Source: Balanoglossus misakiensis
Lineage: Eukaryota > Animalia > Hemichordata
DNA: 64,000 nucleotides
Direction: 5' to 3'
Assembly (NCBI GenBank): GCA_040954595.2
Contig: CM082576.2
Span: forward strand, 18,895,028-18,959,027
Positions 4,931 to 41,082 of the stretch are shown here, one piece after another. The notes beneath the pieces were generated by a model. It worked only from the letters and a program-made list of their open reading frames with translations, ran no database searches and was not told where the DNA came from. Within the stretch, counting starts at the first letter, position 1. Each line of letters begins with the position of its first letter. Made by a program: the position numbers and the translations under genes.

Positions 4931-5350
4931 GGTGAGCTGTACTCCCCAGGGAGTTGAATGGAATGTTTAGGTCCAACGACCTAGGTCAAATGACCATGGG
5001 ACAACTTTAAAGCATGTTGAGATTTAATGTGCTACATAAGTTATAAATATTATATTAATATTATTACATAAACAACACTCTTACCTAGCTAAGGAAGTGG
5101 TCAGGTGAAAAATATTTGCAGAGCTGACCAATTATTTAAGGAATATTAAAGTTGGGTAATTTGGACGTATTCATACGGGTGTTGGTCAATGGAAAGTCCT
5201 TTGTTCATTTTCAAAATGGCAACCAAAAATGCGAACAAAACACACTGAATTATGTACGGGATATTGGTGTTGCCTAATTTGCGTGTTTCCACATTTACTT
5301 AAACTCTCACAGGGAGACAAATGTCACAGCAAACGGAAAAATGACTATGC
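4830..5350 (+). repeat. Duplicated block (satellite end + SINE tail + flank), copy 1; copy 2 at ~8927-9456
   Basis: The run ACATGGGGATTAAATGCA...CTCCCCAGGGAGTTGAATGG...GCAAACGGAAAAATGA is colinear and highly similar at both places. Confidence 0.85.
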
Positions 5351-7199
5351 TACACACAACACTTTTATTGATCATGGAAAATGTTCATGAGAATTGTGTT
5401 ATGGTACTTTTCGGGGCTCACGACCTGTGTTATAGGAAATCTGACAAGGAATCCAAACTGTACCACATACACAACACTTTAATTAAGCATGGGAAATGGT
5501 CCTGAGAACAATATTCTCAGAGTTGACAAACTGTGTTATCTGCGTTATATTGATGTTGTCTAATTTACACGCCTGTACATTTATTTATACTCTGACTTTG
5601 AGCTTAATAAGGCAGCGCCTGCTAAGGTCAATTTGCCACGTACACTTTTAATTAGCATAGATAATGATCATGATAACTTCATTTTCAGAGCTGACAAACT
5701 GTGTTATGTGAAATTCATGTTGCCTATTTCATGATAATGGCTTGTGGTACACAATGGTTAACAGCAATCAGCAATTGCTTGTATGATAGGTATAATGATC
5801 GATTTACAAATTTCAATGGTATAATAATGGGCAACACATGTGGAAGTGTTTAATAAACAGTTAACTGATGTGGTGATGGTTTGTGGTAAAATTGAGGGTA
5901 CACAGATTATAATGGGCAAAACAATGAATATAATAGAGGTTGATGATGGTGAATGGTTTCATATGAATGGTGTAATAAAGGTTAACAAATGTGGTGATAG
6001 CTTTGGTGTACAGGGCTGTTCATATCTTTAGTAATGACAAAGGTATAATAGTGATAAAAGCTTAAATAAGTGTTAGGGCACAATCTTCATGATGGTTCAT
6101 TCATTGGTTAATGTGTATATTTTATTAATATCATGCTATTGTTTATCAGTTAGATCATAATCAGGGTTTTTCCATGCACATAGTCATCATGAATCAGCGG
6201 AATTCTTCTGAATAGTACCTGTGATCATTTTTGCGCACCGACGCATTGTACGCGACAGACATGCAGAAAATATTAACATGTAACTCACAGGCATAGTGTT
6301 AAATCTAAACGACTATATGTTAGATAAGCTTTACCTCCCCACCCCATCAAAATTCCAAATTTAGCTTGATGTGACGTTTTCGGGTAGTACCAATTCGGAA
6401 ACTTTCATGGTTCATTCATTGAACCAAATATTGGATTTGACACACTGTGTCTTGGGTGGGTAAAGCATGGTGAAATGTTGGCAGTAAACTTTAACCAGAC
6501 AGGTCACATGAAAGGAAGATTTTATCATTTGAGTTCGATGGCATACATGATAAGATATGTCAGTTCTGACACCTTTTTTGCAGATGTAGATGCTGATGTA
6601 TTTTTTCCATTGGACACAATACTCAAAGTCCAGTCTGTGTTTAAAATGATACCCTGGTCACACACAGTGAGAAATGTCAGCCTTTGACTTAATTATCTAA
6701 TTTATGCATTGTTAACAATGCACTGTGACATTTACTGCATGTATTTTTCCCCCTGTGGAAACTTACTATGCTTTGAATACATGTTCCCTAATGGGGTGTT
6801 AAAGGATACAGTAGGATCTGTTTCGGTAGCAAATATGACACTGTTTTCAACATATTTGACTGGTGGCAATATGTGGTTTTACGTTGGTATCCATCATGTA
6901 ACTCAGATCACCTATATGAAGCTCCATAGTAAATTTCACAGAAGTCGGCTGATCAATTCCAGAAAAGTAGATTTTTTACCAAAAATGTGGAAAAAGACAA
7001 AAAAATGCATAACAAGTAGAAAATTCACACTATTAGCTTAAAACATACAGAAATGTGTGAGGCTAATATAAGGTACTATCATACCATTTTTTCAAATCAA
7101 TATGACCAGGACTTGTCGAGTTTCTGAGTTTTGACCAAATTAAGGTTTTCCCAGCTAATTTGTATATATTTTTGGCAATGACAACTTCGTTTGAATAAA

Positions 7200-7385
7200 C
7201 TCCCATCTACAGCCTAGCATGCATCTACACACCAAATATTGAGGTTATTGGCGCAACGGTTTTCAAGTTTTTGATGTGTACGGACATACATCCATCTATC
7301 CGTCCATATGTCCATACATACATACAGACGCAACCAAATCCATAAGGTCCCACTGTATATACCTATACAAATGGGACCAAATAAA
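7200..7385. mobile_element. Possible terminus of a non-autonomous Helentron/HINE-like element
   Basis: A degenerate (CATA/CATC)n microsatellite at ~7280-7330, then a hairpin GGTCCCA...TGTAT...ATACA...TGGGACC and an A-rich tail. The other end was not located. Confidence 0.45.
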
Positions 7386-8159
7386 ACACACAAAAAATAA
7401 CACTTAACATCTTACAGTGCAGGGCCTTGCTAGTTGATGTGGTACAATTCTATCATATCACTTCACAGCTGGTAGCCAAGGGCAGTGTTTGCACAGAGGA
7501 GCCTCCTGAATGTCTTCGCTCGTTCACACCTCTTCAGTGATAATGTCTGGATTACATTGACATGAAACTGTTTGTTCAGTAGTGTTTCAACTGCCAGCTA
7601 CCTGGGTTCATTTTACACCCAAACACTGAAAATATTGCAGCAGTCAATAATATAACCTACACACTGTGTGAAATTCACCATGTTCTAAAGTAATGTTGAT
7701 GTCTAATGTGCATTGTGACTTACAGGGCATGCACGGCTAAAGCTTGTCGAAAGTTGACAAAGCAAAAGACCAGACCAGTTGCCTGTTTTAAAATGTGCTT
7801 CATTCCAAGGACCTTGGCGATGAGTCATGAATTGGGAAACGTTCATGAGACCCATTTTTTTTCACTGGACCAGCACATTTAATGATATGACCATGAAATT
7901 GAACTGTTCCCAGGAGCTACTGAGAGTTGCCTTGTTTCACCCCCAAGTTACTACCTGGGGTTTTTACAATGACGACAGTAGTTCCAAAAAAAAACGTTGT
8001 ACTTTTATGAATAATCGATTAGGGTAGATTTATTCATGGTAGTAAAACTTTTTGGCCTGCAGTTGCCAAACAAAGACAATTACAAGTAAGGGACTGGACG
8101 TAAACTACCAGGGGGAGCGCAGGGGAATTGACGAAAGCGATGGCCTCAAATTAATGTCA

Positions 8160-8510
8160 TAGTCCAGTGGTTAGAGCATCAGACCCATAATCAAAGAATC
8201 AAGAGTTTGATCCCTGGCATGGTTGTGGTGTTGTGTCCTCTGGCAAGGCAATTTACATCTCCTTGCCTCTCCCTGCCTATAAGAAAAGGGTAATTTGGTG
8301 GATCGGATATTGTAATGTGTATGTATAGGTCTGCTTTGCTGATATAAAAGCTGCACATGTGAGCTGTTGTTTGCTCCCCATGGAGTGGAATGGAATATTT
8401 TAGGTCCAACGACCTAGGTCAAATTACCATGGGAAACACTTCAAAGCAGCACATTGAGATTTATTGCATAATGTGCTATATAAGTAATAAATATTATATT
8501 GATATTATTA
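8160..8510 (+). mobile_element. tRNA-derived SINE with CORE-like central block
   Basis: Box A-like GTCCAGTGGTTAGAGC (8162), box B-like GAGTTTGATCCC (~8203), CORE-like GTGTTGTGTCCTCTGGCAAGGCAATTTAC, and a 3' GTGCTATATAAG followed by a (TAT)n tail. The tail alone also occurs at ~4935 and ~9030. Confidence 0.7.
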
Positions 8511-8583
8511 CATAAACAACACTCTTACTTAGCAAAGGAAGTGGTCAGGTGAACTATATTCGCAGAGCTGACCAATTGTTTAA

Positions 8584-8926
8584 AGGGGCAAAGTCTCTCA
8601 TCGCTGCCTTTTTTCAATTAATTATGTATGATACAAGACGCCATTGATGTTATTCTACATGTGGATATATGGTGAATCAACATTCGACCACACACAACTT
8701 CCGTCTCGTTTGTACGATATGAGAGTAAAAACTCGCCCAAAATGAATAAATGGTAAAGAACGATTATTCATTTTGGCGAGTTTTTCACTCTCCTGTCTAT
8801 AAGAGGGATGGAAGTTGTGTGTGGTTGAACGTTCATTCGCTATATATCCACATGTAGAATAACAAACGGTGTCTCTTATCAAATATAATATGGGAAAAAG
8901 GGCAGCGAGAGAGAGACTTTGTCCCT
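8584..8926. mobile_element. Kolobok-type TTAA MITE, copy 1
   Basis: TTAA|AGGGGCAAAGTCTCTC...GAGAGACTTTGTCCCT terminal inverted repeats; the right TTAA is missing. A second copy lies at 42784-43131. Confidence 0.8.
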
Positions 8927-9456
8927 CACATGGGGATTAAATGCACATGCGTGTGTATTTAAAGTTAACTGTAAATCCCCAGGTTAATACGTGGCCAAAA
9001 GCACTGTAATTTGGCATTTCTAATGATGGTGAGATGTTGTTTGCTCCCCAGGGAGTTGAATGGAATATTTAGGTCCAACATCCTAGGTCAAATGACCATG
9101 GGACAACTTAAAGCACGTTGAGATTTAATGTGCTACATAAGTTATAAATATTATAAAAATATTATTACATAAACAACACTCTTCCTTAGCAAAGGAAGTG
9201 GTCAGGTGAAATATATTCGCAGAGCTGACCAATTCTTTAAGGAAAATTAAAGTTGGGTAATTTGGATGTATTCATACGAGTGTTGGTCAATGATAGGAAA
9301 GTCCTTTGTTCATTTTCAAAATGAAAACCAAAAATGCGAACAAAACACACTGAATTACGTATGGGATATTGATGTTGCCTAATTTGCGTGACTCTACATT
9401 TACTTAAACTCTCACAGGGAGACAAATGTCACAGCAAACGGAAAAATGATTATGCT
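8927..9456 (+). repeat. Duplicated block, copy 2 (isolated satellite fragment + SINE tail + flank)
   Basis: Matches 4830-5350. Confidence 0.85.
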
Positions 9457-9459
9457 AAG

Positions 9460-11425
9460 CAATACGCCAACCTTTAAAATATACTTTAGAAAGTTTGTAT
9501 TCATACTTTCTTCAAGTTGTCATAACGCTACCCCGAAATGTGTTTAAGTATTGCCTTTGTATTAATGGGCTAGATTCATGGCGTTATATGTCATAAATTA
9601 AAAAGCCAACCCTTATTGATTTTGATAATATTTATGTCGGAGAATCCACAATGAAAAATATGTATTTCAATTTAATAACTCAAAATGATTTTCAAATCCA
9701 TGACCTTATTTTCAACTCCAGTGATCGTACATCCTGAACCTTGTGCCAGTAAATGATTGGCCATTACAGGGTTAATGGGCACTCTCCCGTTCTCTTCCTC
9801 CGCAGTTTCATTCATGTTCTTGTTTGACGGAAATGGGTGTGACCAGACGCTTGAATGTTTTCATGTGGGTGTCGTTGTTCATCGGGATCGGTCTCCTGGT
9901 GTGTCTGTACAGGTACGCAAGGAGAAACTGCCCACAAGAAGCTGCGAGTGAAACTATTTAAGGTAGTATGTGCCTCGCGGTCCGAGATTCAGACAAATGA
10001 TAGTCCTCAAAACTTTTTCAAGTCTTTGATTTACTAAAGTGTATGGTGAGTCTCTTTGAAAACAACAAAAACATTACTCACCATATTGTTATTTTTTTGA
10101 AAGTTTAAAATGAAGTTGACAATGTACCAAACAGATTCTATTTATTTCTTCATGACCATGTTCACCCCAAGGTCATATGGACCTGCAAGTATATGCCAGA
10201 GCCAGAGTCGACATTACCGAAGCCAGAGTTCAAAGCTTGCAGGTCACCCCTTGCCAGCTCATGTCTAGCTAAACTGCCATGGATGCCAAGAGATATAGGA
10301 CTACAGTAACCTGTAGATGGTTTCAGTATGTTTGAAGAAAGTGGTGGCGCACTTTTGGCTACATTTGAAATGGCTATGGTACCAGTGGTTGAATTTGCAA
10401 AGGTGACCTTTGACCTGGTATCATTAAAGATATTAAAGAACGATTGAACATTCCTTGTTGTCGTAAAATGACATCTGTAATAACTTATATTTTATCTGTT
10501 CATCTTGAAGTACTATATATTTAAACGCCAATTTTCCATTGCCAATCAATTTTTACAAATAAATTGTAATATGCATGTTGATTTTACAAAAACTCCTTAC
10601 TTCAAAGTGAATTCTGTTACACATCACGTAAATATTTTCCCCACGAATTCTTCAGTTGCTGACTCGGAAATTTCATATATTGGGCAGAAATTGGATATAT
10701 TACCGAGCCATTAAAATTACAGTTTTCTATTTTAATTGATCTTCCATAACTTCAAGTACTTTGATTTGACATAAATTAAAACATCATGGTGAATAAATAA
10801 AAAATCTTTGATTATCTAATTGTGCATGTTTACATGGTTTTATTTTAGTATGCTGGGTACTTAATGTCTAATTGCTCGCTGATTTTATACTGTTCAAGAT
10901 GACAATCTAATTTTAGTTTTCAGCTGATAATGGAAATTACTGATTAAAAAAATTGAATTTTGTCATGAATAAACTTGTTGTTCATGGCAGTTGCTGTACT
11001 TTGTTTCATGTGTATTCAATTTTTGCAAGAATACCATTGAGCACAGTTTGATTTGATTAAACACGTTTATCGGAAAATTTTGTCATTTGAAATATCTGTT
11101 TTTGCGCCCTCTACCATTTGACCAAATGATTCTCTTATTTTGGTGGCCTTTGTCTGTGTATATGAGAATACTATAGTACTCTCGCATCGATGATAGTAGA
11201 AGTTGAAAACGTCTCTTGCCACGTGGCCTAGAAGAAAGGTGATCTTTAGAGTAAAATAAAACAAACTATCCAGATAGGAAGCTAGAAAAGAAGTTGAATC
11301 GTTGAAATTTTATTTATTTTTATATTGTTAATATCGTTGGTGATGTTGACTGGCCGACAATCTTTGTCACACCAGTATTTGCAGGTAGATTAAAACATTG
11401 CCTATTCCAGCAATAATCACAACAG
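9460..11425 (+). repeat. ~2-kb dispersed repeat, copy 1 (unclassified)
   Basis: Colinear, high identity with 30649-32616 from CAATACGCCAACCTTTAAAAT to CCAGCAATAATCACAACAG. Confidence 0.9.
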
Positions 11426-11639
11426 TCTTACTTTTTCTATCTTTGTAAGCGTTAATCTTTATTGACCTCGCTTGTTGTTTTGTGTTTTTGTGTTGGTTTT
11501 GTTTTTGTTTTGTTTTTTTAGTAGTTTCATAATTTTATTTGTATTTTTAAAATGTTTTCCTGTTTTTTGTTTACTTTTTTATTTTTTTTACTATTTGTTG
11601 ATTGTAATGCTGTATGGGTCTCGACTGTCGGTCCCAACT

Positions 11640-12936
11640 TGTCATATAATTAGGTAGTACTGGAGTCAGTGGAAACCCAGGTGCCCGCATAATTTCAGGT
11701 GTAGTGACACTGTGTATTGTCATGTTAATGAATAGGGCTTCGTTAGCTAAGTTTCGTGTAGTAAGAGAGCACACTTCAATTTAGGTCTTGAAGGGAGCAA
11801 CAAGTCGGGTCTCCCTGCTCAGTGAGTAGAAATACTAGGGGAAATATTGCACCATACCTTGCTGTGTCCATGTAATGCTGTAGCGCGCATTAGTGCTCTC
11901 AGGACCACTGTTTCTGCAATTCGAGTGGAAGTAAATTCAGTACTTCTAGAAAGCAGAATTATGCTTATTCAGTGCAAACCGGTGTGGTCGGGCGATTGGC
12001 GTGGCTGGCATGGTCGTATGTGGTGTGGCTGGAAATTGCTCCAAGCAGAGTTCTGTGGAACCATCCTATAGACCCGGTATTGCTGAGCATGAAGTGTGGT
12101 GAAGAATTCTCGTGTAAGTAATGTATTTGTTTATTTATTTACTATAACTTAAATTTATATTTTATGGATATTTATGTCAAATTCGACAATTTGTAAGTAA
12201 TAGGACGGTCATAGTTAAAGCATAATTTTCCATGATATCACATGTAATCATGACGCTTTAACTAGTCCAAATTTCTGATAATTATTATTGAGAAACGTCA
12301 GTATTCATTTGTGAACAGTTGCTAAGGTGGACATTTCAGTCAATGTTTGTTGATTTTTCATTCAGCCATTTAACCCAAGACTTGCATCTAACAAGTCAGT
12401 CTTCAGTGTGTTTACTTGACTACTGGAGGACTACAAGTGGTAGAAAACATGGTGTATCACAGATTGTATGTGTAATGTGGATCGTCGCTACATCGTTCAT
12501 CTATACAGGACTCCATCCCATATTGTGGTTGAATCATGATTGTTTACTATGAATGTTATATACAGCTAAGTGACACTTACCATTGTTTAGACAATATGCA
12601 ATAGACAATAAACTATAGTGATATTGTGAATATATTCATTTATGTAATATATTAAGTAACCCATTGTATTGTATGACCAATTGTATCAGCATACCTGTAC
12701 CTGCTAAATTGGTTAGGACAGAGACATTTGATATTGTGCATATTGTGCACAAAAATTATATTCCTAGTATTATCTTTATATTATTTAATTGATTTAAATT
12801 AAATCAACTGTATTATTGTATCCGCACTGGTTTGTGTAGTTTCTCCCCATACCTTATCCACGGATGTTTACTCCTTGGCACTGAGAGCTGCTCAATATTT
12901 ATCCTGAAATCAGAGGGGTGCCCTCCACCTCTGACA
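11640..12936 (+). repeat. 5' LTR of the Gypsy element (~1.3 kb)
   Basis: Starts TGTCA and ends TGACA (inverted termini), immediately followed by a PBS. Left of 11640 the sequence matches 32927-32950, which marks the insertion point. No 3' LTR is present to confirm it. Confidence 0.75.
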
Positions 12937-12938
12937 TT

Positions 12939-12955
12939 TGGGGGCTCGTCCGGGA
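12939..12955 (+). promoter_or_regulatory. Primer binding site complementary to the tRNA-Pro 3' end
   Basis: TGGGGGCTCGTCCGGGA lies 2 nt after the LTR end and is the canonical tRNA-Pro PBS. Confidence 0.9.
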
Positions 12956-13274
12956 GTTTTATCGTTTTGTTGTGCATTTGTTTGTATACTATCATAAATT
13001 GTTGCCATATAGTGGAGACCATGGTTTTGATAGGTAGAGATTCTGCAAATTGTGAAGACGGTGCTGGGTCTGTAGGCTGGTACTGTTACTGTATGTGCGC
13101 TTGTGGTTTCCTGCTATATAATATGGGCCGTGTTGGTTTGCGTCGTGCGTTTGGCTGTGTTGACTTGTGCTGAATGCCCTGTACTGCTAGGGGTTGTCAA
13201 ACTGGGGGTTGTAAATCGCGATACAGCAAAGCATATATGCAGAAAGAATATCTAAGATAGGGAGAAAATTTGGG

Positions 13275-15047
13275 TTGGAAGGGACTGCTTTAAAAGATTA
13301 TGTTAGAGAGGAACAAATTAGACAGAGGGATCTTAGGGCTACTGAGAGAGAGGAGCAGAGAGAAGATAATAGGCGGCGCGAGGAACATGAGAGAGAGATA
13401 CTGAAAATGCAAATTCACTTACAAGAATTAAAATTGAAAGGGGAAAATACAGAACAGCAGGTTACTGAAAATAATTTGGCCAAAGCGCGTGCTCCGAGAC
13501 TACAGGGTTTACGTGAGGATGTTGATGATATGGATGCGTACCTTCAACGTTTTCAGCGCTACGCCACTGCTCAGAAGTGGGAAAAAGATGACTGGGGGTG
13601 AATCTCAGTGCATATTGTTACAAGGTAAGGATGTATCCACATACAACCAAATGCCTGCAGCGTCTGCAAATAATTATGATGAATTGAAACCAGAGTTATT
13701 GAGGGCTTACCAGTTAAGTGAGGAGAGTTTTCATGACAAGTTCCGTTCGTGTATGCCACATTATGATGAAAGTGCTCAAAAGTTTATGGACCGTATTGGT
13801 GACTATTTGGGCAGATGGGTAGAACTGGCTGGTACTCCAAAGACGTACAATGGGCTTACAGATCTGTTACTTCGAGAGCAGTTTATTGGAGTATGTTCCA
13901 GAGACATGGCAATGTTCATTAGAGAGCGACGGCCAGAGAATGTCCAAGAGATGGTATCTACTGCCTCAAAATACTTAGATGCCCGAGGGTGGTGGAAACT
14001 GCCAAGTAATGCCAAGAATAATCCAAGGAGCCAGCCGACAGCAAATACCAAGCCTGCTGTATATCCAAATCAAGTAAATAAGTTTAATAACAAAACCAAT
14101 GGTTCCCATGTTTTTAAAGGTACGTGCTTCGTATGTGGTAAAGGTGGTCATATGGCCAAAGATTGTAGAAGTAAGCCAAAGATGCATAAGACGGCGGTAT
14201 TGTTAACTGAAGAAGATAGAAACTATCCACCTAAACAAGAATGTACACATTGGGGCAACCGTCAACAGCCCAGGGGACTAGACACTGGTTATGCATGTAT
14301 GGTGGTAGCAATGGAAATAGATAAAACAGATGCAACACTGAATAAGGAGTTCGTGTTACCATGTAGTCATAAGCTCCCAGTGATGAGTGCTGCTTGTAGT
14401 GCCCATGGAGTGAAGAAGATGCCGGTAATGAAGGGATTGGTCGATGGTAAGCTGGTTAGCGTTTTGCGTGATAGTGGGTGTAGTAGCGTGGTAGTTCGAA
14501 GAAGTCTGGTGTCAAGTAATCAGCTGACTGGTGAGTACAGGACGTGTGTTCTGATAGATGGGACTATTAGAAGAGTACCTGTAGCCTCTATAAAAGTTGA
14601 TACCCCTTACTTTGTTGGTGATGTTACTGCACTGTGCATGATGAACCCTGTGTATGATTTAATACTGGGCAACATTGATGGTGTATCTGACCCTTCGAAT
14701 CCTGATACTACATGGCAGGAACCATTGCCGACATGTAGACTGTGTACAACTGTTGGACAGGTACCAGGTTTAGCAAATGCTGTGGAGACCAGAGCCCAGA
14801 AGATAGCCAACCAAAAACCAATCAGAGAGCTTAAAGTACCTAAAGCTGTTGGTGAAGTGGTGATGCCAGGGAAGCTTCAACAAGCTCAAGAAGAAGACTC
14901 CACTCTTGACAAACTACGTGAGAAGGCAATTTTGGGTGACGAGAAAGTGACTAGGAATGGAGGTAGGTTGAAGTTCATCATGAAAGATGGGATCCTGTAC
15001 AGAGAGTTCAATTCGCCAATGGTCCAATTTGGTGAAAAGCTGTTACA
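13275..15047 (+). pseudogene. gag: Gypsy gag-protease (frameshifted near 13595-13615)
   Basis: DDMDAYLQRFQRYA..W gag motif, SCAN-like LLLREQF, zinc knuckle CFVCGKGGHMAKDC, aspartic protease LRDSGCSSVVV. The frame is broken at 15048 by the insertion. Confidence 0.9.
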
Positions 15048-15087
15048 CACTGCGGGAAATACTAGAGCTATGTTGGGCAGTATTCCG
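15048..15087 (+). repeat. Left bipartite terminal inverted repeat
   Basis: CACTGCGG, an 18-nt spacer, then TGGGCAGTATT at positions 27-37 from the end. Confidence 0.85.
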
Positions 15088-15131
15088 CGAAGCGCGAGCT
15101 CCCATGTTCACCATAGCAACGCATTGCCAAG

Positions 15132-15775
15132 ATGGCGGCGCCCGTGTTGATCGATGCCGAGAAAGTTATAAAACGCAAATTGCGAGAGGCAAAATCTGTG
15201 CTTAAAAATGCGTGTCGGACAATCTGTATATACACCCACTCTTTGATGAACTTGAGGATGTGACAACAAGGGCCATATTTCGAAACGACAAGCTGTCAAA
15301 GGACAAGATTCGTTGGCGTGACGTCGCCGTATTTCCCATGTTTCAGCGTGATATGACCTACTGGCAGAAGACCTTCTACGCTCGGCTGTCAACATCCCCG
15401 TCGTTAAGGTCACCATGGCAAAGCAGCTTTACACAACAAATGCCGAGGGAAGTATTTGATGTTTTTCATCAGTTTGCTACTCGGACCGGTTTTGGTATCG
15501 ACGAGAAGACCTCCAGGGCTATCATAACCTTGACCTTCACAAGTTCCTCGAAGCTATTGTATGTGATACGGAAAGGTTATTGCTACGAGGGCGCTATCGG
15601 TCAGCATACAGAGAATATCCTAGAGAAGAAAGTCCGTGGAAAGAGGGTAGCTGTTATATGCACACCTGAGAAGCCCTGTGTTGTGAAATATTTTATCAAC
15701 AGGGAGACTGTTGCTGTTAGATTCAGCTTTGGTGCCTGGAACAAACATGGAATTCCATTACATCCAGAGAACTGA
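15132..15775 (+). CDS. Transposon partner gene, ~214 aa, unknown function; one apparent frameshift
   Basis: 187-codon stop-free frame at 15212-15775. An upstream AAGATGGCGGCG start at 15132 joins it if one A is added to the A5 run near 15204 (MAAPVLIDAEKVIKRKLREAKSVLKKCVSDNLYIHPLF...). AATAAA at 15904. Confidence 0.65.
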
Positions 15776-16627
15776 ACCCTATTGATTTTTCACACTGATT
15801 CAACCCATCTGACGAACATTTTTTTCCTGATCTGTGGCACATGTTGTTCAGTGTAGATGTATCAGTCTGTCAAGACAGTCCTCTCACAATTGACATATAT
15901 TCAAATAAAAAAAGGAAAATTAGAAGACTCAAAAATTCATCACTTGTCTTTATTTATCTACATTCAATACAAATGAACAGATAACGTTTACAAAATTTCC
16001 TAAACTGTAAAATTCTTTTTTTCCATCATTATTGTAACATAGATTTTTCATTAGTTTCAGAAAAAAATGTATGTTACCTACAATCAACATTGATAAGTCA
16101 ATCAAAACTGCTCATCTAACAGTTAACCAGGATTTCTGGTCTAAATTTAATTAATATTTACAATTAATTCCATGACAAAATTTATAAATATCAAGAATTT
16201 GATGAGACTTAATTCTTTATTTTTTCACAAATTCATTAAAATTTCGTGCAGGTGCAGAATAAACAACTCCTCAAGAAAAATGTAAAACTTTTCTATCAAG
16301 CTTATGTATGTCATACATTTTAATTTTGCAAAGCACTGCAATCACTATACGATTAAGGGTTTATTCACAATACTTAATAGTGGTAAGATAAGTTTCAATT
16401 TCCCTGTCCCCATACATGCACACATATACAAAATCCCATAAGAAACATATCATCTCCAGTTCAAAAAGTGTGAATTCATGTGATTTGTGATCTCCATTTT
16501 TATTAAATGCAGCTCTCAACTACAGATGAGTCTTTATAATTCTGTAATGTAATTAATACCATAGTTATCCTTTAATTCTAAAGTAGCACACAGTGACACA
16601 ATCCACTGTTTCAAATTCAATCATTGT

Positions 16628-18868
16628 TCACAGCATAAGTTTCTTGAGTTTATTTGATATTTTACCAGTGACAGCTGCTTTTTTTATGTCATCCATAATT
16701 GGGTCAACACATATTTCACAGGCAGTCATTGTTTCATTTTTCAAATTGCCACACATACAGTAGCCTGCATTCTCATAATATCGACTGGGAATGTATTTTT
16801 CTTTTTCTTTAAGCTCAAATTGACCTACATTTGCCCTTCTATAGTTGTCAGCTTTTGGACTTTTGTTCCTCAGCCAAAAAAGCATCACATATTCGTGTCG
16901 AAATATGAGGGCCCACCTATTTTGAGGTGTAGAATTTTCACTGAATTCTAGCAGGCGTAGATGCTTTGCCTCTCTGCCTTCCATTGTGTTTAGGCCTAAT
17001 CCCAGACTGAATTGCTTATAGATACTAGTGGTGTGTTTTGGGACTACATAACCAATGTGCCACACAGTATTATTGACATTCAGAAACAGGGAATGTAGAT
17101 TAAAGTACCACCGACACTTATGCCTAAGTACAAGCAAATCTCCCTCATTTATGTTGAATCGTGAGAATAACAAAGTGATATCTCAAAGCAAGATACCAGT
17201 ATATGTGTAGAGAGCTAATTGAGCCCGACGCTTTGGACTGTCTGTATCGCTTCTCAATGCTAATACCAATCCCATGAAATGCCAAGCAAGTTTGCGAGAC
17301 TCCTCACCAGTGAAGCGATAAACCACATTAATGTTGGCATTTGACTTGACACTATTTTCATTGAAGTATTTTACAATCTTATTATACAACTTTCCAGCTT
17401 TTACTTGATATTTTAGGGCAGACAGGAATTTGTACAGATATGACTCGTTAGGTAGATTCTCAATTTTAACTCCATTTTCACGACCCTTTTCCGAAGTGTG
17501 GGCAACTGCGTCAATCAGTAATCGTTGGAAGTAGTATTGCCATGCATTGTTCTTTAAATGCAATGGCTCAGCCTTGGCACAATCAATAAATCTACCCAAC
17601 GGTGGTACAAATTCCTGTCTTGACCTCAGACTGGCTATAAATTGTGTGATTTTGGGTCGCACTGTTTTGGGCTTTCCAGTTTTAATTTTCTTAGTTGACT
17701 TCAACTTTTCAACAGCTTCTGCATCTTTAATTCTTTTCTGATATTTCCATTCATCCCACTTCTGACCTGGGCCAATTTCTGCTCCAATACAATCAATATC
17801 ATTTTTGGAAACGTTAGCAAATGAGCTGAAATACTTTGCTGCATTGCTTAGTTCTCCAGACACACTGGCCAATCCCTTCTGATCAAAGGGTAAAAGTGAC
17901 ACCTGAAAAGTTACATCAAGACTGCCAACTTTATATTTACGTTTCTCAATACACTCAAGGTCTTTTGACAATGCAATTGCAAATTCAATCATTATGGGGT
18001 CATCCTCTTTTATGTTTGCCCCTAATAGGAGAAAATTGTGGTCTGGGCTAGCAACACGGTGGGTCACATTCAAGAAACTAACTAGCCATGCAGTAGCCTG
18101 TCCATGTTTGCCAAACGGAGCCCCGTCAGCACCTATACTGATTTGAAATGAGCCCTCCTGTTTACCGAACCAGTTAAGAATATCAGGCTGTGTTTCCCCC
18201 ATATTTAAATATAAACTGGCAATCTTAATAAGCAACTCCTCAGGGTTTCTTTTTAAGCCGACTTGTTTGCCTTCAGATGATATAATTGGCTCAAGATTTC
18301 CAATGTCAAGGTTACTTACATACTGTACAACTTTTGTGTATGGGAGCAGTCTTGGTATTCTACAGCCAGAATGAATTTCTAATGCTTTCCTAGGATGTTT
18401 CAAGTTGGAGAACATCTGAAGTTCACTCTGCCTCAGACAGTTATATTTTCGTTTGGATAGTACTCCGCCCTCATACATAGTTCTGACACTCCTCACCAAA
18501 TTGTTCTCACTTTTCTCAAATTTACTGATGTATTTATCAAATACTGATGGCATTACTTTTTTACTGATTTGGGGAGAGGTTCTGAAGTATGTTTTCATTT
18601 GGTCAGGAGTGGCAGAATTAACAAGAGTATACCACAAACCATCAAGTGCTGCTTTTGGTGGATGTAGTACATTCGGTTTATTTATACCTTTGGCTGGGCT
18701 TACATCTGTAGTTGCTACATGAATATTTATGGCTGCTGATAAGGTTTCACACCTACGTTCATACTGTTGACGTCGCGACAGCTTCAAAGATTCACTATTA
18801 TCTGCACATACTTCAGTGTTCTTGTGGACCCATTTAGAGCGTTTCACATTAACATCATCAACAGGAAT
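16628..18868 (-). pseudogene. DDE transposase main exon, RAG1/Transib/Chapaev-like; single in-frame TGA at 17183-17185
   Basis: ORFs 17183-18847 and 16628-17173 share a frame across one TGA (likely CGA>TGA; LL*DITLLFSRF). Motifs in RAG1-core order: GADGAPF (D at 18125-18127), PFDQKGL..G (D at 17882-17884), EPLHL, RFTGEESRKL, GLNTMEGREAKH (E at 16970-16972). Acceptor TTAATCTTTCAG ends at 18869. Confidence 0.85.
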
Positions 18869-19221
18869 CTGAAAGATTAAGTGTGTGATAAATATATAAT
18901 AATTAGAATATAATCATTATATATAAAATAAAATCTTCTTACAAGTTAATCATTAATTTAAATGTCCTTGATAAGAAATACACAAGTGTAGCCTGTATTT
19001 TTCTGACAACTTCTGCAATAAAAATCCTAAAAAATATATATAGTTTGTTGGAAAACCTAGATGTTTTGCATCAAAGCTGAACCCATTTTGTTATCATTGT
19101 TTACACAGGATCATGTGACATGAAGTTCAAAAAGCGAATTTGGGCTAAAATTTGAAGAGGATTTATACAAATCTGAGATTTTTAAAATTATGACTAAGTC
19201 TATTTATCTGATCTAGCTTAC

Positions 19222-19681
19222 CTTTCTCTTATTATTCTTTGTAGCTAAGATCTCACAAATCTTACTGTTCTTCTTCTCTAGTCTAGCTAGCTGGGTTGAG
19301 GATCTTTTTACTAGTCTCCTAGCTGCACTCAACTTATTCAACTTATCCTGAATTATGCTTTCTTCCTCATCTCTCTTTCTCTTTCTCTGTCTACACCACT
19401 CTCCTAAGTTAAACCTGTGTTTAGTCTGTCCTCTCTTTGTTCTAACTACCAATAGGTTGTTGGCCACGCTCCCAGACAAAGATCTAGTCTTCAATTTCTC
19501 CTGATATAGTTGTTGCAAACACTTCTCTTCAGCTACCTGTCCCGCTAACTTTTGGTCCTTTGCCCACTGGCCTATGTTGAAGTAACTTTTCCCTTTTCTA
19601 TTCGGCATAACAATAGACAAACTTTTAAGAAGTGCGCTACTCCTGTTGAATAGTTTGCCCCACATGGCTCTAAATCTATAC
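19222..19681 (-). CDS. Upstream exon of the transposase (basic, coiled-coil-like N-terminus)
   Basis: The open frame ends at AAG|GTAAG (donor at 19221) in phase 0 and matches the phase-0 acceptor at 18869 (353-bp intron). Acceptor CCCTTTTCAG at 19682; candidate ATG at 19665. The true start may lie further upstream. Confidence 0.75.
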
Positions 19682-20473
19682 CTGAAAAGGGTGAACAAGA
19701 GAAATATCTTTACAATAATTATCTATCCGAGGGAAGCAAAAACAAAACACCTGCTCATTATACTTCCTCCAGAAATTGAGGTCAAAGGTGACATAGAAAG
19801 AATGTGGGTAACCTTACCATAACAATCTCGCCCGTTCATTTTTTTCTTATTTCGTTTTCACCCTCGAATTTCCAGCGAATTATATCAAGAATATATTTTA
19901 GCACAAACTATTGGTTTCTGATTTTTCAGTTACGGTCTTATTTTCTGTCAATTCTATGAACAATATCACCATGTCGCTGAAAATTCGAAGCGCCGCCATT
20001 ACAATCAATGTAACCCGTGCTGCTGCCAAGGAACACACAGGGTCGTATATTTTCGCTTGGTATGATTTCGTCATATTGCTTGTAGCAGCATTTTAAACAT
20101 GGAATCCTATGTTTACGTATAAAAGACTAAATTCGTATGGTTTTCAAATTGAAAAAAACAATTCTGTGAAGCTGAATCGTTGTAATTTTTAGTGTTTGTT
20201 TATGGTTGCTTAGGACGGCTTCTGGTATAGCAACGGCCAGGGACTGTCAGCGGGTGATCAAAATGTTCAAGTTATTTGGCTGATACACATAAATAACACA
20301 GCAGAATCGCAACTTTATTTCATATTGTCTCTGACATCTTGCTAATTTTACTAAACAAAACTTGGAATAAAGCAATATTACTCACCGAATTATGCTGTGC
20401 ATCGACAGCTGTGTTCGATCGCGAACGCCATTACTGTGTCTAATTAAATATTCATGAGCTTCATAGGCTGCCA

Positions 20474-20514
20474 CGGAAATACTGCCCATAGGTGGCGTCG
20501 TTCAAGCTGTAGTG
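20474..20514 (-). repeat. Right bipartite terminal inverted repeat
   Basis: The reverse complement reads CACTACAG, an 18-nt spacer, then TGGGCAGTATT at positions 27-37. Confidence 0.85.
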
Positions 20515-20517
20515 ACA

Positions 20518-22523
20518 GGTGGTGGTTCCCAGAGTGTATCGTAACCAGGTGATGAGACTAGCCCATGAATCAGTGCTGGGTGGTCACCACGGAACTCACA
20601 AGACCACAGACAAGATCCTCAGCAACTTCGTTTGGCCTGGGCTAACATCAGATGTTTCCCGTTACTGTCAGTCCTGTGATTCATGTCAACGGACACAACC
20701 AAAGGGACGGGTGACCAAGGTACCACTTGGAAGTATGCCACTAATAGATATCCCTTTCCTACGTATTGCAGTAGACCTGGTTGGCCCTATTCATCCATGC
20801 ACTGAACGCAAGAATAGGTACATACTTACTGTTGTTGATTATGCAACACGCTATCCGGAGGCTGTTGCATTGACTAACATTGATACCAAGACTGTTGCAG
20901 AGGCGCTCCTGGACATCTACTCAAGAGTGGGGTGTCCACGTGAAATTCTGACAGATCAAGGAACTCAATTTACATCAGATGTGATGCGTGAGGTCAGCCG
21001 GCTTTTGTCTATAAAGCAGAAGACTACCACCCCATACCACCCAGCATTCAATGGTCTAGTGGAACGGTTCAATGGTACATTGAAACTCATGCTCAGGAAG
21101 ATGTGTGAGGAACATCCAACATATTGGGATCGTTATCTGAATGCTTTACTATTTGCCTACAGAGAAACGCCTCAATCGAGCACAGGATTCTCTCCGTTTG
21201 AGTTACTTTATGGGAGGAGTGTGCGTGGTCCAATGGCTATCTTGAAAGAACTATGGACTGGAGAGATCAGTGAACCAGAAACCAAAACGACTTATCAATA
21301 CATCCTTGATCTTCAAAAGAAATTAAAGAAGGCATGCGATTTAGCAAGACAAGAACTGAAGATATCACAAGGCAAATACAAGTCCTACTACAATAGAAAG
21401 GCCAAATGGAGGAAGTTCAACAAAGGTGACGAGGTGTTATTGCTACTACCTACTGACCATAATAAACTACTTATGCACTGGAAGGGTCCTTTTCCAGTGG
21501 TGGAGAAAGCGAGCAATATGGATTACAAGATTGACTTTGGTCATAGGGTGAAAACATTCCATGCCAACCTGTTGAAGAGGTACTATCGAAGAACTGATCA
21601 GCTAGATGAAGTATCAGCTGGACTTCTTGAGATTGTGTGTGTATCTGTGATAGATGAGCAGAGTTATGAATCTTCAGAAGTACAAGAGAACACAGGGGTT
21701 AAAGTAAACGATGACTTACTGCGGGTTCCTGCATTCAAGCAGAAAGAATTTGCTGCAGATGTGAATGTATGTGACAACTTGTCAGACATACAGGAGCAAG
21801 TGGTGAGGAGGTTGCTGATCAATTACAAAGATATGTTAACTGATATTCGTGGTAACACCAACCTGGGTTTCCATGACATCAAGTTGATGGATCCAACACC
21901 AGTATGCAGTAGGCCATACCCCATCCCTCATGCACTCCGTGAAGCAGTGAAAGATGAAGTCAAAACGATGATTAAGATGGGAGTAGCTGAACCTTCAGAG
22001 AGTCCATATGCTGTTCCACTGGTAATGGTGAAGAAATCTGATGGGTCCAATCGTTGTTGTGTTGACATGAGAAAGCTCAATCGCATAACAGTGTTTGATG
22101 CAGAGCCTACACCAGACCTGAGTGAGCTTTTTGCTTTTTGCTAAGTTATCCAAGGATCACTATTTCACTAAAGTAGATCTCAGCAAAGAATATTGGCAAG
22201 TCCCGTTGACTGATAATTCTAAACAATTGACGGCATTTATCACGCATGATGGGCTATACCATTTTATCAAAATGCCTTTCGGACTTGTAAATAGTGCTGC
22301 GACTTTTAGCAGAATTATGAGAAGATTGTTAAGAGATATGAAGAACGTAGACAACTATATCGATCACATACTGATCCACACTGCATCATGGGAAGAACAT
22401 ATCAAGACAATTACAGATTTGATGAGCAGACTACGAAAGGCAAAGTTAACAGCGAGACCAACTAAGTGTTATGTGGGTTATGAGCAGATCGATTTCCTGG
22501 GTCATGTGGTTGGTCATGGTGAA
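20518..22523 (+). pseudogene. pol: Gypsy pol: integrase followed by truncated reverse transcriptase
   Basis: Integrase HHCC (AHES..GHHG..CQSCDSC) and DDE (AVDLVGP, ILTDQG, GLVERFNGTLK). RT motifs VKKSDGSNRCCVDMRKLN, DLSKEYWQ, MPFGLVN and YIDH (degenerate YIDD). Frameshift near 22130; homology stops after FLGHVVG. Confidence 0.92.
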
Positions 22524-22599
22524 CTAGTCCTGTTTCAAAATGACCTACATTACAGGTCGTATGCACACGTATTACATGTTCTGATTGGTTTATCCACTT

Positions 22600-22885
22600 C
22601 TCTAAGGTCCACTTGCGGCTCGCTGATTGGAGGGACCTTATGTGTTAGGTCTTATTACTATGTATTATTCACCAGACCTTGTAGGTTAGGTCTTATTACA
22701 ATGCATTATTCACTTTACAGCTCCCTGATTGGTTAATGTGTAGGTCTGGTCCTCCAGTGTTCACTGCCTCATTATGCAGGACCTTGTAGGTTAGGTCTTA
22801 TTAATATGTATTTATTCACCATACAGCTCCCTGATTGGTTAACGTGTCAGTCTGGTCCCCCCCAGTGTTCACTGCCTCATTGTGA
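22600..22885. repeat. Short tandem sub-repeats (~105 bp) in the sequence replacing the Gypsy 3' part
   Basis: GACCTTGTAGGTTAGGTCTTATTA...CAGCTCCCTGATTGGTTAA...CAGTGTTCACTGCCTCATT occurs at ~22675 and ~22780, with a partial copy at ~22634. Confidence 0.6.
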
Positions 22886-23944
22886 AATGTCCCATGTGCT
22901 TCCTGGCTAGCATTGTGGTAACATATTATTCGGGGTGTCCGCAGATCGTTCATTGATTTTCTGAGAAATAGCCTAACTGATACTATCTCCAACATAAACC
23001 GCACCCTGGAAAGATTAAATGATCTTTTAGGTGGACTTTGAAAATCTGATTAACTCATCTAAGCATTTTAGCTAAGTTGTATATTTTTTAATTATAATCA
23101 TACAAAATACTTAAAAAATAAAAACAATGTTCAGTTTTAATACCCACTGATGAGGGGAAACATCAGTTTCAAATTCTTTTCATGGGAGCGCTTGAGCAGA
23201 GTTATGAGTTTTGCTCTGTGAAAGAAAATGGGGGGATTTCAAAATTTTGGCAGTTCGGAAGGGGGATTTCAAAATATTTCGGGTTGTGAAAGGGGGGGGG
23301 CATGTGAAAATTAGCGGTAAAAGATGAATCCCCCCCCCCCTCCAGAGGTGTTTGTGAATGCAGCCTAAGAAAGAAAAAATGTGAAATGGGTCAAATATGG
23401 GCCGGACGTGCCCATTCAACTCAATTTACTTTTGTTTGCTTTAAGTAGGAATTGATCACAGCTATATTTATTTTGGACACCTGAGCGACAAGAAAACAAT
23501 CTGATTCTACATTTTAAAAAGAGTCATTGGAAAAGCACTGCAATTTTGTTTCTTGCTTTAAAAAAGTTTGGGGTGGCATGTAATAATTAAGGTGTGTCTA
23601 AATTACTAATTTGGTGCACCTCAAAGCCCTTAGCCAATGTAAATTATATCCTGCATTGTATTCATGATATTTGCATGGCATTTGCATGCGCGTATCACGT
23701 CTCCTTGCTCTGCAAAATAGTCGAGATTTTCTGCAAAGGATTCCAGTTTTTTGTTGTATTACTCAAGGAATTGGTTTACGAATGGTCTATGCTTGTCCTG
23801 CTGTGGTCAGAAATTGATGTTCTTTGCTTTTGACAAGGCATTTGGGCCGAATTTTAGTGAACTTCGGTAAGCCATTCACTACTGCTGATAGCGGTTACGT
23901 AATTTGGTGTGGGATCGTGACGTGGCCACTTGTGGTGACTCAGT

Positions 23945-25123
23945 ATGCCTCTGACCTGCGAGGACTGCGGAGAGTGCTCTTCGAGAGTTAGTCTGTGCCA
24001 AGGAGATATGCATCTGTGTAATACTTGCAACAAGAAACGATTTGGTGGCAGTAACGGCTCTACAGCGGATGGAGGAAGTGGACGAAGTAGAATAAGCGAC
24101 AGTGGTGTGGTAATTAACGAACTTTTATGTTTTATTGTGAATAAGATGGATGTTCTTACAACAGACCTGCTGGTGAAGTTGTGTTGCGACCAATTTAACG
24201 ATGGAGAAGTCGAGACTGCAAAGCGTACTCTTTTTGAACTATGTTGCAATGACCCTGGGAGGATGATAAAACGTCAGGGGCAGAATAAACGATTCAACAA
24301 TTTGATGGATATGGTGAAATTGCTCCACGAAGTTGACATTGAAGACCTGCCATGCTTCGTTGCTAAAGATTTGGCAAAACTCCCGCCAATTGATACGTCT
24401 CACATCGACGTCTCCACATTGATGACAGAACTGAAGTCACTAAGGCGAGAAATGGCACAAATGAAAGACACTGTGGTGCGGTCCGAGGTGACCGATTTTG
24501 CAAGTGAACTCAGTTTGTTGCGGCAAGAAATTTGTGAAGTGAAAAATTGCGTCGATAATTTGCAGAAAGGAGGTGTTGAAAGCGACGTGGTTTCACAGGT
24601 GGCACAATGTGAGCCGCCAAGACCAGCTGTTTGTGAGCCACTGGATCCCCATTGTTCTCTGAACAAAGACCCTCATACGAGCTCGTATGCAGACATAGTT
24701 CAATCACGTGTATCAGCGGTGAAAGCCAAGCGTCCAGTTCAGTCGGACCGTCCATCGACAAAGGTATCTGAAATCCAGTCGGGGAATGGAGAAGAAGAGT
24801 TTACTGTGGTGTCTCGCCGACCTAAACGTCGTCCTCAGGCAGTTTTTGGCACAGCAAAACTCAGTGATGATTCTGCTATCAAATCTGTTCGCCCTAATCC
24901 GCCTTTTAAATTTTTTGTCACTAGATTTGCACCCACAACGACTTCAGATGCTGTTATTTCTTATATTAAAAAACGCAGTCATGTTACCGTTAAATGCGAA
25001 CAACTGAAAACCAAATATGATACTTATTCATCATTTGTGGTTGAAACGACACGTGAGTTCGCCGAGGAAATTCGTGACCCTGCGATGTGGCCTGATGGTA
25101 TTCTTATCCGCCGTTACTATTAA
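23945..25123 (+). CDS. LINE ORF1 protein, 392 aa
   Basis: Intact ATG-to-stop ORF ending 8 nt before ORF2. N-terminal CxxC..CxxC, VVINELLCFI block, coiled coil, and C-terminal RRM-like FFVTRF...YSSF..WPDGILIRRY typical of CR1/L2 ORF1. Confidence 0.88.
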   Translation: MPLTCEDCGECSSRVSLCQGDMHLCNTCNKKRFGGSNGSTADGGSGRSRISDSGVVINELLCFIVNKMDVLTTDLLVKLCCDQFNDGEVETAKRTLFELCCNDPGRMIKRQGQNKRFNNLMDMVKLLHEVDIEDLPCFVAKDLAKLPPIDTSHIDVSTLMTELKSLRREMAQMKDTVVRSEVTDFASELSLLRQEICEVKNCVDNLQKGGVESDVVSQVAQCEPPRPAVCEPLDPHCSLNKDPHTSSYADIVQSRVSAVKAKRPVQSDRPSTKVSEIQSGNGEEEFTVVSRRPKRRPQAVFGTAKLSDDSAIKSVRPNPPFKFFVTRFAPTTTSDAVISYIKKRSHVTVKCEQLKTKYDTYSSFVVETTREFAEEIRDPAMWPDGILIRRYY

Positions 25124-25131
25124 TTTATTGT

Positions 25132-27946
25132 ATGACACTACGTCTTTCTACATATAACTGTCGTGGCATAAAGTCATCAGTAGACTCTATTATGTCTCTC
25201 TGTAACGATCATGATGTTATACTCGTTCAAGAACACTGGCTGACGGAAGCGGAACTACCTCTTCTGTCGAGTATTCACAAAGACTTTAATGCATGTGGTA
25301 TTTCTGCCATTCAAGATGACTGTGGAATTCGCATCGGGCGTCCATTTGGTGGAGTTGCAATCATGTGGCGTAAATCCTTGGGACAAAACTTTTCAATAAA
25401 ATATTTAGATGATACAAGACTTTTAGGTGCTGATATTGTTACATCTTCTGGAAAACTTTTTATTTTATGTGCGTACCTCCCGACCTGTTCTGGAGAAAAT
25501 TATGACACTTATATGAATTATTTGGCAAAAATTAATTGCATTATTAATGATATTGACACAACGAATGTTATAATTCTTGGCGATTTTAACGCTAACTTTG
25601 GTACAATATTTGCTAGGGAGCTTGATATTTTTTGTAAAGAACATAATTTGTATATCTCCGATGTTGAAAAGCTTGGTAGATGCAATGATAATTTTACATT
25701 CGTTAGTGATGCACATGGTAGTACTGGTTGGTTGGACCATATTTTGAGCACCCATGCAGTACATAATGCTATTTCTAGTATTGGTATTTTGTATGATTAT
25801 GTGTCCTCTGACCATTTTCCTCTTTCTGTAAATATTGATATTGTTGGGTTAGTACATACAGATCCGATTCCACAAAATGTTACCAATGCTCATGCGAAGC
25901 CTAACTGGAGTAAAGCGACACCCAGGAACTTGTCTGCTTATGAACATATGACGGAGTGCTTACTCCGTAGACTGGATATCCCAAATGTTGCTCTTGTATG
26001 TCGAGATCCTAACTGTAAGAATATAGATCACATTAGCAGTCTAAATTCTTTGTATTCGAATATTGTTACTTCTCTTAAATCAGCTGCGTTGAACTGCATT
26101 CCTGCTTCGAAGGCAGAGGGGTTGGGTTTTAATACTGTTCCAGGTTGGAATGAACATGTACGTGATTTTCACAATGCCGCTCGTGATGCATTTAAATTAT
26201 GGGCTGCTAATGGCAGGCCTAGGTTTGGCCCGCTCTTTGATCTCATGCGCAGAACTCGTGCAAAATTTAAGTCGGTTTTACGGGCGTGTAGAAGAGATGA
26301 AAACCTAGCCAGGGCCCAGGCTTTGGCCAAAAACTTGACGCAGGGGGGCACACGTAAGTTTTGGCAGTCTGTACATACCACTCGTGGTTGTTTATCTTCG
26401 CTTCCGACCAGTGTAGGTGGCTGCACCGGTCATGAAAATGTTGCCGATATGTGGAAACAACATTATGAAAGTTTGTTGAATTCTGTTTCGAACTGTCGTG
26501 ATAGAGCATTTGTATTGTCATCGTTAAATGAAACTGGTTCCCACAACAATGCCATGGTTGTTACTGCGATGGAACTAAAAGGGTGTATTGATAAGCTTGA
26601 GAAGGGAAAGGCATTGGGCTATGATGGTCTTGGTGCCGAACATCTCATGTATGCAAGTCCAATCATTTGCGTTATGTTGAGTTTATGTTTTACTAGTTTT
26701 TTTACACATGGTTATTTACCCGAGACTTTAATGCACGCCATTATTTGTCCTATTGTGAAGGATAAATCCAAAGATCTTACTTCTGTGGATAATTATAGGC
26801 CCATTGCAATTGTCACGGCCATCTCGAAAGTTCTGGAACTTTGTATTCTATCTCGTATTGATTCACTCTTAGATACAAGCAATTTACAGTTTGGTTTTAA
26901 AAGTAATCACTCTACCGACATGTGTATCTTTGTTCTCAAAGAAATTGTTGACTTTTATAAGAGGCATAATACGCCAGTTTACCTCTGTTTTATGGATGCT
27001 ACGAAAGCTTTTGATAGGGTCAACCACTGGACTTTGTTTAGAAAACTGATTAACTGCAAGATACCTCTTTTTATTATTCGTATTTTACAATATTGGTATA
27101 GTAATCAATGCTTTTCTGTGCGCTGGGCATCTGTAATTTCTAATTCCTTCAGTGTTATTAACGGTGTACGGCAAGGAAGTATTCTTTCACCCAAACTGTT
27201 CGCTATATATGTAAATGATTTAAGCGGTCAGCTGCAATCAGCCGGGGTTGGCTGTTACCTAGCTAATACCATTGTTAACCATTTGTTCTATGCAGACGAT
27301 TTAGTCTTGATTTGTCCGTCGGTCAAAGCATTACAGAAACTGAGTAACATTTGTGAACTGTATGGAAATGAGCATGATATTATTTTTCATACTGCAAAGA
27401 CAGAGTGTATGGCAATTTTCCCAAAGTCTTGGAAAGCACACAGAATTCCTTGTGTATATTTGTATGGTAAACCTCTTAAGTATGTATGTACAAAAAAAGT
27501 ATCTTGGCTATATTATGTCCTCTTCGGGTATGGATGATGCTGATATGCAGCGGCAGCTTCGTTGCTTTTATGCTAGAGCTAATTTTATTTTGCGTAATTT
27601 TGGCCATTGCTCATATAAGGTGAAGTGCACTCTTTTTAAAAGTTTTTTATATAGTGTTTATTGTCTTAACGTGTGGTGTAACTACAGTGTCAAACAAATG
27701 TCTACTTTAAAAGTTGCGTATAACAATACCTTAAGATTGATTTTTAATCTGAAACGCGATGTAAGCATAAGTCATAACTTTGTAAGTAGGAATATTTTGA
27801 ACTTCACCTCGCTACATCGAAAATTGGTTTTCTCCTTTTGCCAACGCTTACAAAAAAGCGGTAACCCGGTTATCCGCAGTTGTATACAGACTGACTGTTA
27901 CTTTTTATCTACATTCTGGGGGCATTGCAGGGTTGTTCTTCATTAA
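25132..27946 (+). CDS. LINE ORF2 (AP endonuclease + RT); one frameshift at the A7 run 27492-27498
   Basis: APE motifs TYNCRG, QEHWL, GDFNA, WLDHIL, SDHFPL. RT motifs NYRPIA, QFGFK, DATKAFD, GVRQGSILSP, FYADDL. Deleting one A gives KKYLGY and continues into ORF 27353-27946. Confidence 0.92.
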
Positions 27947-40195: not shown

Positions 40196-40219
40196 TCGTG
40201 GCCCCTACACGTCAATTTT

Positions 40220-40780: not shown

Positions 40781-40896
40781 ATAACACACCATGCAGCGAA
40801 CCCTCGATCGTGATTCGTCAATACGACGTCACGTGACCTTAGTCATTTCGAACTGTTGCCTTGGGCATCAGTTCGATAGGTTTGGTGTGTTATAAA

Positions 40897-41082
40897 ACAC
40901 ATGATGGCTGACATATTCGGGCAACAGTGTATTTTTAATGACCTCGGGACTGCCAGTCACACCAAAACAGTCTGTTTTCCCTCGGGCTATGCCCTCGGGA
41001 AAACAAGACTGTTTTAGTTGTGACTAGCAGCACCCTCGGTCATCAAAATACACTGTTGCCCTCATTGTCAGTCATCATGTGT
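40897..41082. mobile_element. Palindromic non-autonomous element (Crypton-like appearance)
   Basis: ~186-bp imperfect palindrome ACACATGATGGCTGACA...TGTCAGTCATCATGTGT centred on CCCTCGGGCTATGCCCTCGGG. The neighbouring 40779-40895 has TTATAACACACC / GGTGTGTTATAA ends. Confidence 0.6.

Follow-up and report, generated by a model that had tools for sequence, protein, structure and literature searches.

A Small Convergent Partner Gene Is Co-inherited with a RAG1-Fold Transposase in a DNA Transposon of Balanoglossus misakiensis and Its Relatives

The stretch of DNA analysed here, referred to as the window, comprises 64,000 nucleotides of Balanoglossus misakiensis (assembly GCA_040954595.2, contig CM082576.2, positions 18,895,028 to 18,959,027 of the forward strand). 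It contains a DNA transposon of 5,467 bp (15048–20514) with CAC...GTG termini, which read CACTG at the left and TAGTG at the right on the forward strand. Within the element, two genes converge, one encoding a transposase and the other a small partner protein:

15045..15047, no strand: left copy, ACA, of the 3-bp target-site duplication
15048..15084, plus strand: partner-side end, CACTG terminus with TGGGCAGTATT at 27–37 from the end
15132..15775, plus strand: single-exon partner gene encoding 216 aa in the contig form, with 7 letters near 15203 missing from the window copy; assigned the family label PF26709.1
15776..16627, no strand: AT-rich gap of 852 bp between the two stop codons, 29% GC
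15904..15909, plus strand: candidate polyadenylation signal of the partner gene, AATAAA
16628..18868, minus strand: main exon of the RAG1-fold DDE transposase, with a premature stop at 17183–17185 in the window copy
19222..19681, minus strand: predicted upstream coding exon of the transposase, with AG/GT sites in phase with the main exon
20478..20514, minus strand: transposase-side end, CACTA terminus with TGGGCAGTATT at 27–37 from the end
20515..20517, no strand: right copy, ACA, of the 3-bp target-site duplication

The inner motif TGGGCAGTATT is equidistant from both termini and, as a 10-mer, occurs exactly twice in the whole window. Insertion of the element split a Gypsy-type retroelement between its protease region and its integrase. 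This host retroelement (13215–22736) has its integrase ahead of the reverse transcriptase, the Gmr1-like order, and is apparently truncated in the reverse transcriptase region. Single contigs from two public sequencing runs, both of one sample that is possibly the window's own, span the Gypsy flank into the element at both sides. The window and contig forms therefore share one insertion site, and as such provide no evidence for recent jumping in the host. Contig depth is high and continuous over the Gypsy element and the nested transposon (9000–23600), which, depth not being equal to copy number, hints that the block was multiplied as one unit. Elsewhere in the window, contigs of both deeper runs skip 4.4 kb (23668–28073), a polymorphic insertion that holds a 394-codon frame (23939–25123), and two long, very uniform AT-rich tracts of 25–28% GC (34000–41000 and 44000–64000) are probably satellite arrays.

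The partner frame had been predicted to start just inside the left end of the element, and ATG 15132 is indeed the 85th base counted from CACTG at 15048. In the window copy, the intact part is an open frame of 189 codons (15206–15775), a length equalled in 1 of 1000 base shuffles of 15132–15775. The original prediction held that the frame could be repaired by restoring a single A in the homopolymer at 15204–15208, for a product of about 214 aa. In substance this was correct, since the gene is restored in the contigs of both runs, but the detail was not: the contigs carry 7 extra letters behind 15203 instead of one A, which join ATG 15132 in frame to the open frame and yield 216 aa. The register agrees with that of the closest relative, a homolog of 207 aa whose residue 29 aligns to residue 5 of the open frame. 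The 24-codon N-terminal piece by itself gave no in-place alignment to relatives, and the start at ATG 15132 is supported by position, motif, and register. Inside the ORF, the window and contig forms show three differences, every one residue-changing.

Other features of the predicted arrangement were also recovered. The gap before the transposase stop is AT-rich compared to the partner ORF (29% versus 46% GC), and the transposase, whose stop lies at 16628, converges on the partner gene. The expected AATAAA is present at 15904; because the gap holds 4 plus-strand and 7 minus-strand signal-like hexamers, this single match carries little weight. The richness of the product in aromatic residues proved real but modest (13%), and the conserved aromatics look like the core of a fold.

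A word-based search with the window partner protein returned 25 candidates, none of which passed, and HMMER identified 75 relatives at 20–39% identity, most full-length ones being 200–240 aa long; neither search found a homolog closer than 39%. All 75 proteins returned by the profile search carry the precomputed label PF26709.1, and the partner protein family is therefore already catalogued, as PF26709. Its named members are uncharacterized or hypothetical proteins of Acropora and Pocillopora. No link between PF26709 and transposons was found on record, the accession being absent from the literature searched, and Pfam scans of the partner, including 71 members, gave no match with a Pfam set that had no PF26709 entry.

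Members of the partner family span 200–260 aa and are basic, with a median pI of 9.3 (above 8.5 in 40 of 46 full-length homologs). They share the motifs RR-L--P-W and, at the C terminus, YG-WN--G-PQH, in which conservation of the C-terminal Asn and His reaches 96% and 85%; Glu82 is conserved in 68%. No residue is invariant in the alignment, and Cys reaches 60% in none of its columns (86 sequences). A confident model of 189 aa (pLDDT 89.8) predicts an alpha/beta structure for the partner, made up of 4 helices and 7 strands. A fold search against the PDB and viral models returned nothing at E 0.001, and a profile search against PDB sequences nothing below E 0.07. Structural comparison with 48,161 chains gave a best Z-score of 4.7, a value that establishes neither a known nor a new fold. 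In agreement with the original prediction, the partner is not RAG2: the Pfam scans, the model, and the Cys columns reveal neither kelch repeats nor a PHD finger, the latter being discounted by the lack of a conserved Cys column, and 200–260 aa is too short for a six-bladed kelch beta-propeller. A separate observation concerns a 613-aa protein of Tubulanus polymorphus (XP_074652023), tau/MAP2-like by eye, with a C-terminal partner-like domain (E 3e-4), which could reflect domestication of such a domain or a gene-model join.

The transposase main exon is 74–75% identical to a Ptychodera flava protein on either side of the premature stop. In the contigs, a different base at 17185 removes this stop, but at 16736 and 17809 they differ by 1 base from the window, which runs colinear with the Ptychodera protein at both sites; both forms in the sample are thus damaged. 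A word search identified 299 transposase relatives among 7,995 candidates; among those listed, the Ptychodera flava protein stands at 74% identity and the others at 34–46%, with the named ones from corals and anemones. With a model of the Ptychodera transposase as query (pLDDT 91.3), Foldseek ranked RAG1 best (E 1.3e-11), followed by HzTransib (4e-6) and the ProtoRAG protein BbRAG1L (4.5e-6), at 10–14% identity; the alignment to RAG1 extends over 550–700 columns. D181 and D262 are invariant (89 of 89 sequences), as is E566 in the 88 of 88 rows with a residue, and by motif likeness the three are presumed to form the catalytic triad. A C-terminal CxC...CxxC is invariant in the family. The C(2)C motif is absent: its expected place reads Y-F-S-S-F, and Cys occurs in at most 9 of 89 sequences at any column from 258 to 290. 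In H(3-4)H, only the second His, H545, is invariant, the first being variable (44 of 88 at column 540). The aligned part, outside which the relatives' upstream exons lie, has no conserved Cys cluster before the C terminus, and the window's upstream frame contains only 3 Cys. A Pfam scan of 8 transposase sequences matched no transposase family, and a profile search against PDB sequences gave nothing below E 0.28.

To what extent the partner accompanies this transposase type was read from the transposase side. A metagenome scan with the transposase yielded 254 loci, the best 80 of which were analysed; these almost wholly resemble coral and anemone proteins. Because 37 of the 80 loci have less than 1 kb downstream, they were too short for the linkage count. 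Where at least 1 kb of sequence follows the transposase, 35 of 43 loci have a partner homolog there on the opposite strand; where 1.5 kb or more follows, 32 of 34 do. Homologs thus sit tail to tail with the transposase as a rule, but not in every locus: L070 (4.6 kb downstream) and L028 (1.8 kb downstream) have no partner, although a close relative of L070 does carry one. When loci are grouped into lineages at 90%, 80%, and 70% DNA identity, the partner is carried by 16 of 17, 15 of 16, and 14 of 15, respectively. On the other side, 33 loci have 1.5 kb or more of sequence upstream of the transposase, and none shows a near-full partner copy there. Shorter partner-gene fragments do lie there, near the other end, in L081 (4913–5254), L017 (1165–1263), and L058 (1066–1224).

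The ends of the related elements, located from breakpoints between copies, begin with CACGC. In 21 of 24 loci, the distance from the end to the first partner ATG is 77–117 bp, compared to 85 in the window, and in 17 of the 21 this ATG is part of ATGGCG; the intergenic gap ranges from 233 to 2916 bp. Eleven metagenome loci have both true ends. Four of these show a 3-bp duplication, the other seven none of at least 3 bp, and in none of the eleven does it reach 4 bp. At least two pairs of loci have one flank in common but not the other, which suggests that ends from different copies were joined during assembly. In one subfamily, a second end-like CACGCCGGG occurs about 845 bp inside the transposase-side end (L007 3240, L009 4148, L010 901, L011 1513, and L014 1759). 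At L074, a Myb/SANT-like ORF just beyond the element end (7530–8300) probably belongs to a neighbouring Harbinger-type element.

One further element, L081, is complete at 8.5 kb, with a convergent partner and a 3-bp duplication. It occupies 4328–12869 of a contig that is assigned to an Anaerolineae metagenome-assembled genome (MAG), where a 294-bp satellite surrounds it. A bacterial origin was considered and rejected, as 185,579 species genomes gave a single match, in satellite DNA of a MAG contig; L081 is most likely animal DNA in a bacterial bin.

Sequence comparisons among these loci address whether the partner gene is maintained. Of 21 pairs selected (more than 50% identity, at least 8 differences), 15 had measurable dS; most belong to a single subfamily group, and they cannot be treated as independent. 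Between subfamilies, dN/dS for the partner is well below 1, as had been anticipated for a functional gene, at 0.26–0.59 overall and 0.26–0.30 in the five deepest pairs, compared to 0.07–0.54 for the transposase. Two pairs tested singly gave p = 1e-7 and p = 0.002. For co-descent, 12 of 18 clusters had frames long enough for trees. The partner and transposase trees of these 12 cognate pairs agree except for the placement of L027, which is weakly supported in the partner tree, and their distances correlate (Mantel rho 0.72, p = 2e-4). Mean identity is 27% for the partner and 43% for the transposase, so the partner changes faster. The matching trees set aside the possibility of a one-off captured fragment. 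It is important to note that linked genes share their history regardless of contact, and co-descent therefore demonstrates long co-inheritance only. The partner is a dedicated second gene under purifying selection, co-inherited with the transposase; conservation, dN/dS, and matching trees bear out the earlier view of a dedicated element gene distinct from RAG2.

With regard to its role, a model in which the partner is a non-catalytic, nucleic-acid-binding accessory subunit in an undescribed two-gene lineage of RAG1-fold transposons stands at about an even chance. According to this model, each gene would be expressed from a promoter near its own end, consistent with a partner start 77–117 bp inside the terminus. 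The basic partner would bind DNA, the transposase, or both, and would assist assembly of the transposase, either at the ends of the element or on target DNA. It might thus fill a RAG2-like role in activation and target capture by means of an unrelated fold, and perhaps prop up a transposase domain that lacks the zinc ligands of RAG1 and Transib. The convergent linkage across loci and lineages, the same layout in L081, the fixed start position, dN/dS below 1, co-descent, the basic chemistry, and the confident alpha/beta model all fit. There is precedent in RAG2L of RAGL elements (PMC10629977) and in the accessory proteins of Kolobok lineages (PMC9587614).

Several observations weigh against an accessory subunit. 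Linkage and co-descent demonstrate service to the element rather than contact with the transposase, and the faster change of the partner would equally suit a protein engaged in a conflict with its host. The alignment of the transposase to RAG1 spans 550–700 columns, and an end-binding domain of its own is probable. In addition to L070 and L028, the 74%-identical Ptychodera flava transposase is annotated without a close partner, which is either unannotated or absent there; this counts, for now, against strict dependence. A stronger version, in which a superfamily-level lineage independently evolved an obligate two-subunit transposase, with the RAG1–RAG2 layout, a new-fold partner, and no ZnB zinc site, is put forward as a tentative reading with less than an even chance.

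Alternatively, the partner could be an anti-silencing factor in the manner of the VANC proteins of plant Mutator-like elements, one that sustains expression of the element by binding its DNA, its RNA, or the small-RNA machinery of the host. The faster change and the basic surface would be expected of such a protein, but dN/dS gives no sign of positive selection. Language-model features place the partner nearest PAZ/ArgoL1 clusters (0.93; 134 of 256 features shared, recognition 1330), a weak lead, as a second family member gave no usable match in the language-model atlas and Pfam matches of 71 members include no PAZ family. Likewise, the structural comparison returned faint similarity to RNA-binding folds, such as the N-terminal domain of RNase H3 (Z 4.6, rmsd 2.1, 53 aligned), yet all Z-scores are below 5 and within background. 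An anti-silencing role is considered unlikely, if worth keeping in mind.

A negative regulator, which would control copy number by repressing the transposase promoter or inhibiting the enzyme, perhaps with help from an overlap between the convergent 3′ ends, is improbable. The short intergenic gap in many loci, the interleaving of polyadenylation-like signals from both strands in the window gap, and ATGGCG-type motifs near either end would suit it; near-universal retention alongside transposases only about 40% identical is more readily understood if the factor is needed than if it acts as a brake. At least as improbable are two further roles: targeting, with the transpososome anchored by the partner to some feature of host chromatin, and processing of intermediates by a nuclease activity that has gone unrecognised. 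Kolobok lineages do have nucleases among their accessory proteins (PMC9587614), and the C-terminal Asn, His, and Glu82 are well conserved. However, the partner has no invariant catalytic set, Pfam scans reveal neither a chromodomain nor a nuclease family, and insertion sites are varied (a Gypsy element in the window, a satellite in L081). The idea of an ORF carried as a passenger or arisen by chance, and of no use to the element, is largely refuted and very improbable: the window copy is broken and its residue-changing differences are what a dead copy would show, but family-wide conservation, fixed position, purifying selection, and the confident fold argue otherwise.

The accessory-subunit model bears on the origin of V(D)J recombination, where an open question is how a Transib-like enzyme that worked as a single protein became dependent on RAG2. 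If the element represents a sister lineage that shares the tail-to-tail layout but has an unrelated partner, partner acquisition would be a recurring step in the clade of RAG1-fold enzymes, and should the obligate two-subunit reading be true, nature would have arrived a second time at a solution to the problem solved by RAG2. This offers a direct comparison, both of whether the partner docks at the RAG2 site and of whether it accounts for the 3-bp stagger and the loss of the zinc site. More generally, the uncharacterised PF26709 family, with many copies in coral genomes, gains a context for its role.

Among known systems, ProtoRAG and the RAGL elements are similar in having a RAG1-fold DDE transposase, CAC termini, a convergent second gene, and two-part ends. 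RAGL elements encode RAG2L with kelch and PHD domains and generate 5-bp duplications, according to PMC10629977 and PMC9435367; here, the partner is a 200–260-aa alpha/beta protein with neither domain, the duplication is 3 bp, and the inner motif is equidistant from both ends. The original prediction that the partner occupies the position of RAG2L in ProtoRAG therefore holds for the convergent layout inside the ends, but the element is a separate lineage rather than ProtoRAG. With respect to RAG1 itself, the transposase is only 10–14% identical and lacks the C(2)C zinc motif. Transib resembles the element in fold (HzTransib) and in CAC termini but encodes no RAG2-like protein and makes 5-bp duplications (PMC10629977), in contrast to the fixed second gene and 3-bp duplications found here. 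The 3-bp duplication, the missing C(2)C motif, and the lack of RAG2 together indicate that the element is neither RAGL nor Transib.

The CMCT clade (EnSpm/CACTA, Mirage, Chapaev, Chapaev3, Plavaka, ESTA, and Lanisha) is comparable in its CA..TG termini and 2–5-bp duplications, and the EnSpm signature of CAC..GTG with a 3-bp duplication is seen in the present element too; C(2)C is given for all CMCT transposases and RAG1 (PMC12730594). Unlike these, the present family lacks C(2)C, retains only the second His of H(3-4)H, and has an invariant C-terminal CxC...CxxC. Chapaev and Chapaev3 are described as having an N-terminal Chapa zinc-finger domain (PMC4411706). The pairing of this transposase with this partner was not found described in the literature searched; Repbase and subscription journals lay outside that scope, so the family may already have a Repbase name. 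Kolobok Kol0, with its transposase and KolX, is likewise a DDE transposon that encodes a second, small and dedicated protein whose role is unclear, although KolX has a zinc "ballast" fold with seven conserved Cys (PMC9587614), whereas the partner has no conserved Cys. Taken together, these comparisons place the element as a variant of the two-gene DDE transposons, possibly a new lineage.
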